From a phage, in the sequence record PZ445451.1: a DNA stretch of 64,000 bases; one strand, given 5' to 3'. The position numbers and the translations under genes are program-made. A model generated the notes under the pieces. That model made no database searches. It was not told where the DNA came from and saw only the letters and a program-made list of their open reading frames with translations. Position 1 is the stretch's first letter; every line of letters starts with the position of its first letter. Shown piece after piece: positions 38,074 through 59,942 of this stretch.

Positions 38074-38292
38074 GTGTACAAATTATATAAAGGAAAAGAT
38101 AAGTTTACGGGTAATACATCTGGTTTCTATGTAACACCACGTGGTGTTGCTGTGTTCGATTGGATCTCTGGTACGCCAGATCGTGAAATGATCTCTCTTG
38201 TAAAACTGTCAGAACAAGATTATACTTACGGTGACATTACAACATTCTATTCTCGTGCAGAAAATCCAAAACTGATTGCGGAGTGGGAATAA
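38074..38292 (+). CDS. Hypothetical protein (72 aa), GTG start
   Basis: Track ORF; GAGGAG SD before GTG. Confidence 0.5.
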   Translation: MYKLYKGKDKFTGNTSGFYVTPRGVAVFDWISGTPDREMISLVKLSEQDYTYGDITTFYSRAENPKLIAEWE

Positions 38293-38555
38293 TGGTTACA
38301 CGATATGATTTAGAGGTGTACAGCCAAGGTGCTGCTGGTCAATGTGATATTGTACCAGATCCAGAAGGAGACTATGTTCTTCTTGCTGATTACAACAAGC
38401 TAGAAGAAAGACTTCTGGCTGTGTATGCTAAAGAGAACAAAACAATCTGCCCTTATTGCAATGGAATGGGTTGGGTGGTTGCAGATGTTGGACAAATGTA
38501 TGAATGTGTACCGTGTAAAACCACAGGATTTATTGAAAAGGATACTGACAAATGA
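38292..38555 (+). CDS. Cys-rich hypothetical protein (87 aa); weak paralog of 32923 gene
   Basis: Track ORF; start moved to MVTRYDLEV (ATG 38292); CPYCNG..C..C motif. Confidence 0.5.
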   Translation: MVTRYDLEVYSQGAAGQCDIVPDPEGDYVLLADYNKLEERLLAVYAKENKTICPYCNGMGWVVADVGQMYECVPCKTTGFIEKDTDK

Positions 38556-40748: not shown

Positions 40749-40922
40749 ATGTTCAAAGATACCCATTATAAATGTGTACATTGTGGTAAATCTTTTGGTG
40801 ATCACAAAGCTAAAACATTCAATTGTCCACGAAAAGGGCGAGGTAGCTTTAAAGGTTTTAATCCATCCCACGTTTATTCTCCCAACTACGAGAAACCAGA
40901 AGAAGAAAAATTTGTAATCTGA
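40749..40922 (+). CDS. Small zinc-ribbon-like protein (57 aa)
   Basis: Manual ORF MFKDTHYKCVHCGKSFGDHKAKTFNCPRKG.. with AAAGGAG SD; preferred over overlapping track ORF 40720..40917 in another frame. Confidence 0.45.
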   Translation: MFKDTHYKCVHCGKSFGDHKAKTFNCPRKGRGSFKGFNPSHVYSPNYEKPEEEKFVI

Positions 40923-56801: not shown

Positions 56802-57791
56802 TTAAACTTTATTTTCCCACCACTCTTTGTTATCTACATACCAATCAATGGTTGAATAAAGTTTTTCTTCAAATGTGCCTTTAGCTTTCCACCCTAATTC
56901 CTTTTCAATCTTATAAGGATTCACTTCATATCTTAGATCATGTCCAGGTCTATCTGTAACCATCTCAATTAGGCTACAAGCATCTGTTTCAGATGGATAC
57001 ACCGCATCCATATAATCACAAATCATATAGATTACATCAATATTAGTTCTAGGGTTTCTGCTCCCAATATTATATGTTTCTCCAGATTTGCCTTTAGTTA
57101 CTACTAGGTGTAATGCTTCTGCGTGATCGTCAACGTATAACCAGTCTCTTACTTGAAGACCATTGCCATAAACAGGGATTGGTTTATTCATCAAGATATT
57201 TGTTATCGTTTTAGGTATCAGTTTTTCTGGATGATGATATGCTCCAAAATTATTTGAACAATTTGTTATAACTGTCGGAATACCATAAGTACGATGCCAC
57301 GCTCTTACCAAATGATCGCTTGCTGCCTTAGATGCAGCATATGGACTACTTGGCTTATAAGGATTCTGTTCTGTAAACGGATAATCCCCTTCTTCCATAT
57401 CACCATACACTTCATCTGTTGAAATATGATGAAACATTTTAAGATTTGATTTATCTCCCATTAAACGAACAGCTTCTAGAAGATTAAATGTTCCAACAAT
57501 ATTTGAATTTATAAAAACACTCGGTGATGCTATTGAATTATCTACGTGACTTTCTGCTGCAAGATGCATTATATAATCTGGGTTAACATCTGCCACAATC
57601 TTAGCAGTTAACTGAGCATTTGTCAAGTCAACACGACAAAACTTTACATTAGGTGTTTCTGATAAATTTCTAGGGTCTGAAGCGTAACCCCATTTATCTA
57701 TAACGTAAATATCATTCTTAGTATTTTTAGCCAGGAAACGAACTACTGCACTTCCAATAAAGCCTAAACCACCTGTTACTAAGTATTTCAT
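56802..57791 (-). CDS. rmlB: dTDP-glucose 4,6-dehydratase
   Basis: Track ORF; [31 protein letters not shown] (YxxxK), HISTDEVYG. Confidence 0.9.
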
Positions 57792-58078
57792 TTAGTCTCC
57801 TTCCAATTATTCCCTTCAGTAAAAATAATACCTTCATAAAACAACCATCTGGAACCTTTTTCAACAGGAACAGGAATCTCTTCTTCAGTAAAGTTATAAA
57901 CCTCTCTAGCATCTTCTAAAAGTGATGCAAATGTTTTTGGACTTACTGTTACGCGAGGAGCATTGATCAGTTGATCTAGCATCATTCTACTATCCTCCTT
58001 ACCAAACGTGTTGAGAAATAATAGTTTCCGTTTCAATGTTATATTTTTCAAGAAGTTGTGCGTAGGCTTCTTTTGCAT
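57788..58078 (-). CDS. Hypothetical protein (96 aa)
   Basis: Track ORF. Confidence 0.5.
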   Translation of the reverse strand: MQKKPTHNFLKNITLKRKLLFLNTFGKEDSRMMLDQLINAPRVTVSPKTFASLLEDAREVYNFTEEEIPVPVEKGSRWLFYEGIIFTEGNNWKETK

Positions 58079-58325
58079 TCTTATTTAGTTGCTCAAGATC
58101 TACAGCTATACTTCCTTCGCCACCTTCTAAATAAATGCCATATATGCAATAAGATTCATCAGCATCATAGAAAGGAGAGATACGGCTTAAATCAAGACCT
58201 TCTTGTAAGAACCAATTAAAATCTCCATCAAATTCTTCTTCAATTCTAGGATCTTCTCCTACAGCCTCTTCCCATTTATTAAAAGGTGCACCCTGTAACA
58301 TACGCCATTCAGTGGCAACTCCCAT
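57999..58325 (-). CDS. Hypothetical protein (108 aa)
   Basis: Track ORF; GAGGAGG SD 5 nt upstream of ATG 58325. Confidence 0.5.
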   Translation of the reverse strand: MGVATEWRMLQGAPFNKWEEAVGEDPRIEEEFDGDFNWFLQEGLDLSRISPFYDADESYCIYGIYLEGGEGSIAVDLEQLNKNAKEAYAQLLEKYNIETETIISQHVW

Positions 58326-58461
58326 TATCTTCCTCCTCTTCTTTTTCTTCCGTGTGAACGAAGCCTAAACCGTTACAATTCCAACACGGAATAAATTGTT
58401 CCATACTAACAATAAAATTCCCAGTACCACCGCAGATAGGACAAATACTTACATCATCCAT
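58309..58461 (-). CDS. Mini zinc-finger protein with DnaJ-type CxxCxGxG repeats (50 aa)
   Basis: Manual ORF MDDVSICPICGGTGNFIVSMEQFIPCWNCNGLGFVHTEEKEEEEDNGSCH; GAGGAG SD; overlaps next gene by ~17 nt in another frame. Confidence 0.45.
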   Translation of the reverse strand: MDDVSICPICGGTGNFIVSMEQFIPCWNCNGLGFVHTEEKEEEEDNGSCH

Positions 58462-58463
58462 TA

Positions 58464-58646
58464 TTAAAGCTCCTCAATCTTTTCTAACATCTGTTTTAAC
58501 TCATTCTCTGTTAACAGAATTTCTGTGATACCATCATAAGTTTCTACCATCAGAGTAAAACATTTTTCTCCATCTGAACACACAAAAGCACCACCTTCAT
58601 CTTCTGTTAAGTCAGAATTAATATCCACATCAACAAAATCAATCAT
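58464..58646 (-). CDS. Hypothetical acidic protein (60 aa)
   Basis: Track ORF; start moved to MIDFVDVD (AAGGAG SD). Confidence 0.45.
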   Translation of the reverse strand: MIDFVDVDINSDLTEDEGGAFVCSDGEKCFTLMVETYDGITEILLTENELKQMLEKIEEL

Positions 58647-58857
58647 CTTTTTCTCCTTTGATAATTTCAAACTTGGCTACACCATTAACTATAATGTGAC
58701 CGCAAGACATAACTCCTAGCCAATGATCACCATTCTTTTTTAAACGTTTACCGTAAACATCACAGAAACCATTCTGTAATTCGGAAGCCTCATAAGAGGC
58801 TCCCTTTTCGAAAACGTCTTTGAAGTCAGAAATTAATCCAACACAAAGTAGTTTCAT
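58639..58857 (-). CDS. Hypothetical protein (72 aa)
   Basis: Track ORF immediately downstream of nrdB. Confidence 0.5.
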   Translation of the reverse strand: MKLLCVGLISDFKDVFEKGASYEASELQNGFCDVYGKRLKKNGDHWLGVMSCGHIIVNGVAKFEIIKGEKDD

Positions 58858-59942
58858 TAGAAGTCTAACTCCTCGTCATCACTTACATCTTTATTTGCTG
58901 AATTCAGTTTGTAAGCTGTAATTTGGATCTCCTGTGCTGCTGCTTGAATTTGATCTGGATTTAACCAAACATCCATCCAAGGCAGTGGACTTTTCTTCGG
59001 TGCACGGAATTTGTGTTTCATTTTCAGTCTGCGATAGATAGGCGCGGCATTGAAGTAAACCCAAAGTTTGAACAACTCTGCGTTACCACCAACGATAACC
59101 CTTCCTTCACTAAACAGATAGTCACACCAATCTTCCTCTTGTCCAACTACCGTATCAAGAATTTCTGTCAGAACGTCGATATTATCTTCGTATACTTTTC
59201 TCCAGACAGGATCTTTCAGCAGTGCATCAATAATAGCATAATCCATTTTAACGTGCAATAGTTCATCCAACATAATTTTTTGAATAAGTTTAGCTGCACC
59301 TACAAACAGTTGCTGCTCTGCTAAGGCAAATGTTGCAGCAAAAGATGATATGAATTGAATGCCTTCCAGACCGATAAGTGCAATCATTCCTTTCAGAATC
59401 AGTAGACGAAGGTTATCATCCTTCTCAATCAGACCTAGAGCATATTTATGTCCTGCCTCTGCCAGATCACTCATTATCTCTTCAACTATACCCATCCTCT
59501 GGAAGATTCTTTCGTTCTCCATAATCTGATCGATAACTTCATTTGGATTAGGGATACACTGACGAATAATTTCAGAATATGTCAAAGCGTGTAAAACTTC
59601 CATTTCTGATTGCTTCATCATCATTGCACATGCTTCGTTGTTGCTTAAAAATGGTGCAAACAAAGTGATGATTGATTTAGCAAGTGAATCATTTTCCCAC
59701 TGGAAAGATAGGTTTTTGATCATAACATCATAGTTGCTTTTAGAACAAGCTACGAAATCTTTTCGTGTCTGATCTAAGTTTACTTCGTTTTCATCCCAAT
59801 CTTGCTGTTTTTGTAGTTTGTACAGGCGATGCATTTCTGGGTATGTTACGTTAATAGAATCAAAAATACCTAACTGTTCGCCCAAAAATACAGGGTAGAA
59901 ACCTTCTTTGTAAGTGTCGTTGTATAAATTAATTGCTGCCAT
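58857..59942 (-). CDS. nrdB: Ribonucleoside-diphosphate reductase small subunit (class Ia NrdB)
   Basis: Track ORF; 361 aa, ferritin-like di-iron ligand helices (..EVLHALTYSEII.., ..LEGIQFISSFAATFAL..), acidic C-terminal tail DDEELDF; continuous ORF with no intron. Confidence 0.9.
   Translation of the reverse strand: MAAINLYNDTYKEGFYPVFLGEQLGIFDSINVTYPEMHRLYKLQKQQDWDENEVNLDQTRKDFVACSKSNYDVMIKNLSFQWENDSLAKSIITLFAPFLSNNEACAMMMKQSEMEVLHALTYSEIIRQCIPNPNEVIDQIMENERIFQRMGIVEEIMSDLAEAGHKYALGLIEKDDNLRLLILKGMIALIGLEGIQFISSFAATFALAEQQLFVGAAKLIQKIMLDELLHVKMDYAIIDALLKDPVWRKVYEDNIDVLTEILDTVVGQEEDWCDYLFSEGRVIVGGNAELFKLWVYFNAAPIYRRLKMKHKFRAPKKSPLPWMDVWLNPDQIQAAAQEIQITAYKLNSANKDVSDDEELDF

Follow-up and report, generated by a model that had tools for sequence, protein, structure and literature searches.

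Can a reading frame of only 50 codons, wedged between two other small phage genes, encode a real protein, and what would a protein do that consists of little more than one zinc knuckle of the DnaJ type? The question is raised by positions 58309-58461 (minus strand) of the 64,000-nucleotide stretch of phage DNA (PZ445451.1) analyzed here, which is called the window throughout. A preliminary description, made from the letters alone, had pointed to an overlapping mini-gene with two CxxCxGxG motifs and an acidic tail at this locus.

Identity of the locus and its public annotation

Around the mini-gene, a 3.6-kb stretch matches Escherichia phage PaulScherrer (Bas60, MZ501100.1; Justusliebigvirus, Stephanstirmvirinae) at 100% identity and about 55 phi92-like phages at 98%. 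Window coordinates equal MZ501100.1 coordinates minus 64675. The ORF had been described as not in the track of reading frames, a statement that does not hold for the public record, where it is present as the CDS bas60_0216 (QXV83951.1) with the label “hypothetical protein.” Using tblastn, the ORF was recovered in 104 phage records, and a CDS is annotated over nearly all of them. For gp070, the ortholog in phi92, the record notes “putative DnaJ chaperone” and annotates an RBS AGGAG, and the SKA64 ortholog is named “chaperone protein DnaJ.” With bas60_0216 and the note on gp070, the mini-gene and its DnaJ-like motif are already public knowledge. The mini-gene is an ordinary finding that carries little weight for discovery, and its value is mainly corrective. 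In the literature on phi92 gp070, on CxxCxGxG motifs in phages and on small phage zinc-finger inhibitors, we found no functional study of this mini-protein family.

Reading frame and translation signals of the mini-gene

The ORF list, the GenBank record, the orthologs and a pN far below pS all support a CDS at 58309-58461 on the minus strand. It is ATG-initiated and encodes a product of 50 aa, MDDVSICPICGGTGNFIVSMEQFIPCWNCNGLGFVHTEEKEEEEDNGSCH, of which MDDVSICPICGGTGNFIVSMEQFIPCWNCNGLGFVHTEEK is an example peptide. Both motifs were found as claimed. Knuckle 1, CPICGGTG (C7, C10, G12, and G14), is encoded at 58420-58443 (minus strand), and these four residues are invariant across the 11 orthologs as well as an alignment of 29 sequences. 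Knuckle 2, CWNCNGLG (C26, C29, G31, and G33), lies at 58363-58386 (minus strand) and is likewise seen in the ortholog and 29-sequence alignments. The linker NFIVSMEQFIP between them (58387-58419, minus strand) is predicted to form a beta-hairpin of strands 15-19 and 22-25, with an AF2 pLDDT of about 96. As a control for chance we used 60 mononucleotide shuffles. The six-frame translation of the window contains three CxxCxGxG motifs, compared to a shuffle mean of 0.1 (maximum 1), and a pair of them in one open frame occurs once in the window, in the mini-gene, and in none of the shuffles. On the opposite strand, no ORF of at least 30 aa covers the region.

A strong Shine-Dalgarno (SD) sequence, GAGGAG, also part of the preliminary description, was confirmed at 58470-58475 (minus strand), 8 nt upstream of the ATG. 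It lies in the last codons of the upstream gene (58464-58646, minus strand), which encodes a 60-aa acidic protein (bas60_0217, phrog_22146) and whose stop TAA (58464-58466) is followed by the mini-gene ATG after 2 nt. At the other end, the last 17 nt of the mini-gene (58309-58325) are shared in a different frame with the start of the downstream gene at 57999-58325 (minus strand), an overlap that had been given correctly as about 17 nt. This downstream gene, called translationally coupled, encodes a 108-aa acidic protein with a pI of 4.06 (bas60_0215, phrog_15453).

Conservation and selection

Orthologs with 45-59% identity were found in Phapecoctavirus and in phiWec181-like phages, and an exhaustive profile search extended the range among uncultured relatives down to 38%. 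Across 11 orthologs (38-98% identity), M1, C7, C10, G12, G14, P25, C26, C29, and G33 are invariant, and G11, T13, and G31 are near-invariant in the same alignment. Conservation of the cysteines in related phages had been named as a check on the ORF, and all four are indeed kept down to 38% identity. Residues 15-24 of the linker are among the most variable positions between lineages, and they are followed by the invariant P25. Within the core (residues 1-36), PaulScherrer differs from alia by six synonymous and no non-synonymous substitutions, and from phi92 by three synonymous and no non-synonymous ones. Distant pairs of the mini-gene reveal a pN of 0.24-0.50 versus a pS of 0.57-0.92, the latter being saturated. 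At every orthologous locus, the start codon has an SD-like element (AGGAG, AGGAGG, or AAGGA) ahead of it. The invariant Cys and Gly residues, the synonymous excess and the conserved SD-like element bear out the proposal of a real overlapping mini-gene, and we conclude from these sequence comparisons that it is a genuine protein-coding gene under selection.

The family appears to be narrow, since protein searches returned few matches: one in the first, word-index version, seven in the profile version, and three loci in IMG/VR. When the distant variants P0009 and P0047 served as tblastn queries, no further isolated phages were added. The remote single-knuckle mini-proteins P0086, P0088, and P0031 lie on short contigs with uninformative neighbors; a weak Redoxin match adjoining P0086 is the one exception among these contexts.

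The acidic tail houses the start signals of the next gene

Residues 38-50 and the stop codon (58309-58350, minus strand) form an acidic C-terminal tail that is dual-coding, as judged from its codon layout and a pLDDT of about 55. Its codons read GAA GAA AAA GAA GAG GAG GAA GAT AAT GGG AGT TGC CAC TGA. The stretch GAGGAGGAA (58330-58338, minus strand), identified from sequence and codon layout, comprises the codons E42-E43-E44 and is the SD of the 108-aa gene, whose ATG (58323-58325) lies within the codons D45-N46-G47 (GAT-AAT-GGG). An SD-like element is found 2-11 nt before the start of the next gene at 11 of the 12 orthologous loci, and at the twelfth, in phiWec181, GAGGAGGAA likewise precedes the ATG at the annotated start. 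At most of the 12 loci examined the two genes overlap by 11-17 nt with the SD inside the tail; in alia the start codon of the next gene is GTG. The end of the tail differs in length and sequence even among near-identical phages (DNGSCH, DNGD, DSGG, and MKNGY). Klebsiella phage phi1_175008 and its Salmonella counterpart SSBI34 have unrelated, knuckle-free small genes in the same slot, upstream of the 108-aa homolog, and these too end in ...EDGN and ...KNGD.

The richness in glutamate and the terminal D-(N)-G are therefore largely explained by the overlapping ribosome binding site and start codon of the next gene. Since the tail consists mostly of signals of another gene read in a different frame, it should not be taken for a functional DNA-mimic or interaction tail. 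The acidic residues that the preliminary description had seen are there, and residues 38-50 are predicted to be disordered; as an independent feature of the protein the tail does not stand, because it houses the SD and start of the next gene at 12 of 12 loci. We also weighed a programmed frameshift that would fuse the mini-gene with the 108-aa gene and rejected it as unnecessary: the -1 frame runs into a stop (RKRRGGR*), and the +1 frame is open but has no canonical slippery site, while an SD with an ATG (GTG in alia) accounts for the overlap.

Family matches and predicted fold

The mini-protein scored below every curated threshold of Pfam and NCBIfam. The best Pfam match was DUF5351 (PF17302) with 22 bits and an E-value of 2e-4, spanning both knuckles, against a cut-off of 27. 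DnaJ_CXXCXGXG (PF00684) reached 18.9 bits (gathering score 32.7), Anti-TRAP (PF15777) 17.9 bits (cut-off 32), the NCBIfam model RtpA (NF058604) 19.4 bits (cut-off 65), and the Lar restriction-alleviation protein (PF14354) 17.9 bits (cut-off 28.6). The weak match to PF00684 recurred in all 11 orthologs (best E-value 1.5e-4), those to Anti-TRAP and DUF5351 in 10 of 11 and that to Lar in four of 11. The sole clearly significant family was PHROG 8027 (E-value 1.2e-11), in which residues 1-46 align to profile positions 2-50 of 153. Neither DUF5351 nor PHROG 8027 has an assigned function, so they provide no mechanistic information on the mini-protein. A profile search of the PDB placed the cysteine-rich domain (CRD) of E. 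coli DnaJ (1exk) on top. Scanning metagenomes with the first motif as the seed gave 38 loci confirmed by tblastn, of which nine are orthologs; the other 29 are mostly full-length DnaJ proteins containing a J domain, along with a few other multi-knuckle or unrelated proteins. The DnaJ loci are 33-50% identical to the mini-protein over about 30 residues.

Structure prediction by AF2 was unusable with a six-sequence alignment (pLDDT 52.9). Using 29 single-module mini-proteins, the pLDDT rose to 83.7, and 32 residues score 90 or higher. The model contains strands at residues 4-6, 15-19, 22-25, and 34-36 and no predicted helix. Foldseek searches against the PDB returned anti-TRAP (3ld0, 2bx9, 3lcz, and 2zp9), BSD2 and the DnaJA2 CRD on top, with probabilities of 0.95-1.0, and UvrA zinc modules and lambda Q further down. 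In BFVD, at least 158 viral proteins match the model (E-value up to 10); most are small and uncharacterized, and phi92 gp070 and the phAPEC8 ortholog are among the top matches.

At the level of the superfamily, the two CxxCxGxG motifs with invariant Cys and Gly residues and the structural model place the mini-protein within the DnaJ-CR-type zinc knuckle fold. According to the model it is a lone zinc center of this type, a predicted four-strand beta mini-domain, in which the four cysteines probably hold one Zn(II). The assignment as a zinc finger of the DnaJ cysteine-rich-domain type had been made from the motifs, and it is now supported by the weak PF00684 matches in all orthologs, the DnaJ-rich metagenome scan and the fold matches to DnaJ, BSD2, and anti-TRAP. 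We are highly confident that this is a real zinc-knuckle mini-protein.

The mini-gene occupies a variable slot between nrdB and the rml genes

The genes around the mini-gene form a packed row on the same strand, comprising nrdA, a 125-aa ORF (annotated as 111 aa), nrdB, the 72-aa and 60-aa genes and the zinc finger, followed by the 108-aa and 65-aa genes and rmlB, rmlA, rmlC, and rmlD. nrdB (58857-59942, minus strand) encodes the beta subunit of a class Ia ribonucleotide reductase (RNR). Scans for promoters and terminators gave counts no higher than those in shuffled sequence, with none flanking the mini-gene, and Rfam gave no matches; this fits a mini-gene internal to a long operon. The mini-gene start lies no more than about 14 nt from the nrdB stop in six uncultured relatives. 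All these contigs belong to one phage lineage, with NrdB proteins that are 84-100% identical, so the adjacency of the two genes reflects inherited synteny.

The content of the slot varies. The 72-aa, 60-aa, and 65-aa genes are present in some relatives and missing in others. The zinc finger is missing from Klebsiella phage phi1_175008 (88% identity in NrdB), where an unrelated small gene takes its place, and L016 has the zinc finger without the 108-aa gene, a 60-aa gene following it. On these patterns of presence and absence across relatives, we rejected an obligatory tie of the mini-gene to RNR or the 108-aa gene. Where NrdB retains 84-89% identity between lineages, the mini-protein retains 43-59%. 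Its identity in Phapecoctavirus is 45%, compared with 84% and 93% for its neighbors, and an ORF of 53-54 aa lies between the mini-gene and the 108-aa gene. Judged from these sequence comparisons, the mini-gene is a fast-evolving accessory gene that is restricted to certain lineages and sits where gene content varies, after nrdB and before the rml genes. Its fast divergence could stem from weak constraint instead of an arms race.

Possible functions of the mini-protein

The gene row from nrdA and nrdB to rmlBACD would be transcribed as one transcript, and the mini-protein translated from it would be a small, zinc-stabilized protein-binding module. Its variable hairpin (residues 15-24) may be shown to a protein partner, as in anti-TRAP and BSD2. 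A host protein that is blocked or modulated would be a likelier partner than a phage enzyme that is assisted; the host partner is favored because of the analogy to anti-TRAP and the fast divergence. For this combined reading, a real zinc-knuckle gene whose product is a small protein-binding module with a host protein as the likelier partner, we estimate a probability of about 0.6. That the mini-protein is in fact a binder or inhibitor of a host protein, the role that the preliminary description ascribed to such phage mini zinc fingers, is suggested by analogy and stays tentative, at less than even odds. Anti-TRAP offers one structural precedent for binding and inhibition, and it is bacterial, not from a phage. 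We strongly doubt a more specific form of this idea, in which the mini-protein would be a decoy of a single DnaJ zinc center that docks on host DnaK/DnaJ or on another oligomeric host protein. In DnaJ, productive hand-over to DnaK depends on the center that repeats two and three make up. If the decoy reading were true, the phage would redirect or block a host machine during takeover, and the fast divergence among phages that are nearly identical elsewhere would represent host-specific tuning.

Other functions were weighed against a host-directed binding module. The mini-protein might help RNR, either in the assembly of NrdB or as its holdase, similar to BSD2 for Rubisco, or as a redox or metal partner resembling the YfaE ferredoxin or a rubredoxin-like Cys4 protein. 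The short distance to the nrdB stop in the six uncultured relatives, a glutaredoxin gene at the end of the same row in those relatives, the rank of BSD2 among the best structural matches and a first knuckle that is weakly rubrerythrin-like (E-value above 1) all point in this direction, and the steady position beside nrdB could still signal an RNR-related role. However, the loci represent a single lineage and hence no independent cases of adjacency, two small genes separate nrdB from the mini-gene in PaulScherrer, and both phi1_175008 and SSBI34 (which has nrdAB) carry a gene other than a zinc finger in the slot. Moreover, no rubredoxin or ferredoxin family matched at E-values up to 1, and the mini-protein diverges far faster than NrdB, so that we regard a role as RNR helper as unlikely. 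The mini-protein could also form a two-gene module with the 108-aa protein, as a complex or as a regulator/effector pair. Both proteins are acidic and without assigned function, the 108-aa gene follows directly at nine of 12 loci, and at most loci the genes overlap by 11-17 nt with the SD in the tail. Yet such overlaps are the norm throughout the gene row, the 108-aa gene occurs without the zinc finger in phi1_175008 and SSBI34, and L016 reveals the converse arrangement. In Phapecoctavirus, the 53-54-aa ORF intervenes and the divergence of the two proteins does not co-vary (45% versus 93% identity). A dedicated pair is thus quite unlikely.

Binding of nucleic acids, as by a small regulator of transcription or DNA repair with a module like those of lambda Q or UvrA, would be in line with the presence of UvrA zinc modules and lambda Q in the Foldseek matches, with weak PHROG matches to Q-like antiterminators and with a paralogous module in bas60_0172, annotated as “putative DNA-binding protein.” That label is annotation only, though, and Q and UvrA rank below anti-TRAP, BSD2, and DnaJ and cover the knuckles only. 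Because the mini-protein has a net charge of -9.4 (-3.4 for the core alone) and a single basic residue (K+R = 1), we consider nucleic acid binding very improbable. Least credible of all is a spurious or untranslated ORF, with motifs that arose by chance or remain from a decayed larger gene. The ORF is very short, and the literature on the ortholog gp070 and on phage CxxCxGxG motifs yields no expression evidence; against this stand the motif pair (one versus none in 60 shuffles), the Cys and Gly residues that are invariant across 38-98% identity, the strong synonymous excess, the conserved SD-like element and the confident fold prediction.

Further zinc-finger-like ORFs in the window

A second copy of the module is present in the same phage. 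The 87-aa protein bas60_0172 (38292-38555, plus strand; phrog_22955), annotated as “putative DNA-binding protein,” carries it in its C-terminal 35 residues, ICPYCNGMGWVVADVGQMYECVPCKTTGFIEKDTDK (CPYCNGMG ... CVPCKTTG). This module is 32% identical to the mini-protein over 34 aa, with a pairwise E-value of 6e-7. The preliminary description had instead named a second small zinc-ribbon ORF at 40749-40922. An ORF of 57 aa does exist there, but a four-Cys zinc ribbon does not, since the product has three cysteines (C9, C12, and C26) and a histidine. It corresponds to bas60_0180, “putative transcription factor,” and gave weak C2H2-type Pfam matches only. bas60_0180 is a member of phrog_10623, and PBECO4-like jumbo phages have homologs of it; bas60_0172 is nearer to the module of the mini-protein than this ORF.

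The module is recurrent, occurring in bas60_0172 of the same phage and in the set of at least 158 viral proteins from BFVD. Solving a single case by experiment would therefore supply an annotation for many phage “hypotheticals,” and Bas60, a BASEL phage able to grow on E. coli K-12, is convenient for this.

Comparison with known systems

The closest known counterpart is anti-TRAP (RtpA/YczA) of Bacillus (PDB 2bx9, 3ld0, and 2zp9), the best Foldseek match with a probability of 0.99, a TM score of about 0.5 and 32% identity over 37 residues. Both are free-standing proteins of about 50 aa, and both have, in the mini-protein by prediction, one Zn(Cys)4 center formed by two consecutive CxxCxGxG motifs with a beta-hairpin in between. 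The inter-knuckle spacing differs, with 15 residues in the mini-protein (C10 to C26) compared to 10 in anti-TRAP. E. coli is not known to have TRAP, and the two proteins can therefore not have the same target. Anti-TRAP blocks TRAP by binding to it; its active form is a trimer held together by a three-helix bundle of the C-terminal alpha-helix, residues 38-50, and its strands form an outer two-strand sheet and an inner hairpin, a layout with which the model of the mini-protein agrees (PMC11255114). In the mini-protein, the trimerizing helix is replaced by the E/D-rich tail, which is predicted to be disordered (pLDDT about 55). As judged from the model, the analogy is incomplete because the trimerizing C-terminal helix is missing. 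The mini-protein stays outside the anti-TRAP family, with PF15777 and NF058604 below threshold and no such helix.

The signature CxxCxGxG and the knuckle fold are also common to the CRD of DnaJ (PF00684; PDB 1exk and 2ctt). The CRD has four repeats and two zinc centers, whereas the mini-protein has two repeats and one center, i.e., half of it. The J domain, the G/F region and the C-terminal substrate-binding domains of DnaJ are all missing: no Pfam or NCBIfam match to a J domain with its HPD motif was found in the mini-protein, and only six residues precede the first knuckle. Having neither a J domain nor a second zinc center, the mini-protein is not a DnaJ chaperone, and the labels to that effect on the orthologs in phi92 (gp070) and SKA64 are over-annotations of a single zinc knuckle. 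The plant Rubisco assembly factor BSD2 (PDB 6ekb and 6ekc) matches in fold only, with no family match at the sequence level; BSD2 has two zinc centers and is targeted to the chloroplast. No Pfam rubredoxin match was obtained at E-values up to 1, the alignment with rubrerythrin reaches only the first knuckle (E-value 1.3), and the mini-protein remains below the threshold of the Lar family (PF14354).

Partial DnaJ modules are known from other phages. A partial DnaJ central domain with two CxxCxGxG motifs occurs in gp45 of Acinetobacter phage Loki (PMC5313236), and a partial DnaJ-type module is also found as an insertion in DNA polymerases of the HMO-2011 type (PMC9038755). In these proteins, as in lambda Q and the Q-like antiterminators, the module is embedded in a larger multidomain protein. 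Unlike in lambda Q, Loki gp45, and the HMO-2011-type polymerases, the module in the mini-protein is essentially the whole protein.

A second two-knuckle gene and the ORF at 40749-40922

The two-knuckle module that characterizes the 50-aa zinc-finger protein bas60_0216 (58309-58461, minus strand) recurs at the C-terminal end of bas60_0172 (38292-38555, plus strand; phrog_22955), an 87-aa product annotated as a putative DNA-binding protein. Here the knuckles read CPYCNGMG and CVPCKTTG and are followed by an acidic end, and the two proteins share 32% identity across 34 aa. The module is thus present in no fewer than two PaulScherrer genes. The copy in bas60_0172 was not listed in the preliminary description, which had instead named 40749-40922 as a second zinc-ribbon ORF. 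An ORF does exist there on the plus strand (bas60_0180, 57 aa, annotated as a putative transcription factor; phrog_10623), but its product contains only three cysteines (C9, C12 and C26) plus histidine, and its family matches are weak and of the C2H2 type. Conservation of bas60_0180 extends over 170 phage records, and the homologs in PBECO4-like jumbo phages, which are among these, share about 45% identity with it.

A variable slot between nrdB and rmlB

The zinc-finger gene lies in a slot between nrdB and rmlB (57788-58857, minus strand) that holds small acidic genes of 72, 60, 50, 108 and 65 aa. These genes are gained and lost from lineage to lineage, while NrdB remains 84-89% identical (the window and loci L004, L006, L010, L014-L016, L023, L060 and L061). 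In Phapecoctavirus the zinc finger shows 45% identity, compared with 84% and 93% for its two neighbors, a contrast in sequence that suggests allelic replacement or fast evolution.

For the gene upstream of the zinc finger (58464-58670, minus strand), a mechanical ORF list gives a TTG start at 58670 (68 aa), whereas GenBank uses ATG at 58646 (60 aa). Since the PHROG profile matches residues 9-68 of the longer form, the shorter GenBank form is supported. The downstream 108-aa protein (57999-58325, minus strand; phrog_15453) has a pI of 4.06 and a net charge of -16, and searches of Pfam and NCBIfam returned no matches. It occurs in 133 phage records, a wider range than that of the zinc finger, extending to Klebsiella, Salmonella (Vequintavirinae) and Acinetobacter phages. 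In phage alia (locus L002, region 2016-2026) the start codon of this gene is GTG rather than ATG and the zinc-finger frame reads GAT AGT GGG, so that the zinc-finger C-terminus becomes DSGG and the overlap is reduced to 11 nt. An 11-nt overlap with the zinc-finger gene end is also seen in phage SKA64 for a 54-aa ORF with its own Shine-Dalgarno sequence (locus L006, 1637-1801). The SKA64 record lacks an annotation for this ORF; its 53-aa counterpart in a metagenomic contig (L013) is called as a gene.

Host labels of matching records

Searches with the DNA and protein of the zinc-finger region also retrieved records labelled "Campylobacter phage", with C. jejuni as the host, as well as "Pseudomonas phage PsgM04F" (MG065639, MG065645, MG065656, MG065689, MG065650; OR584014). 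These host labels look doubtful, possibly owing to contamination or mislabelling. In the zinc-finger region the Campylobacter and Pseudomonas records match phi92-like or phAPEC8-like E. coli phages, with DNA identity of about 98% for four of those labelled Campylobacter.
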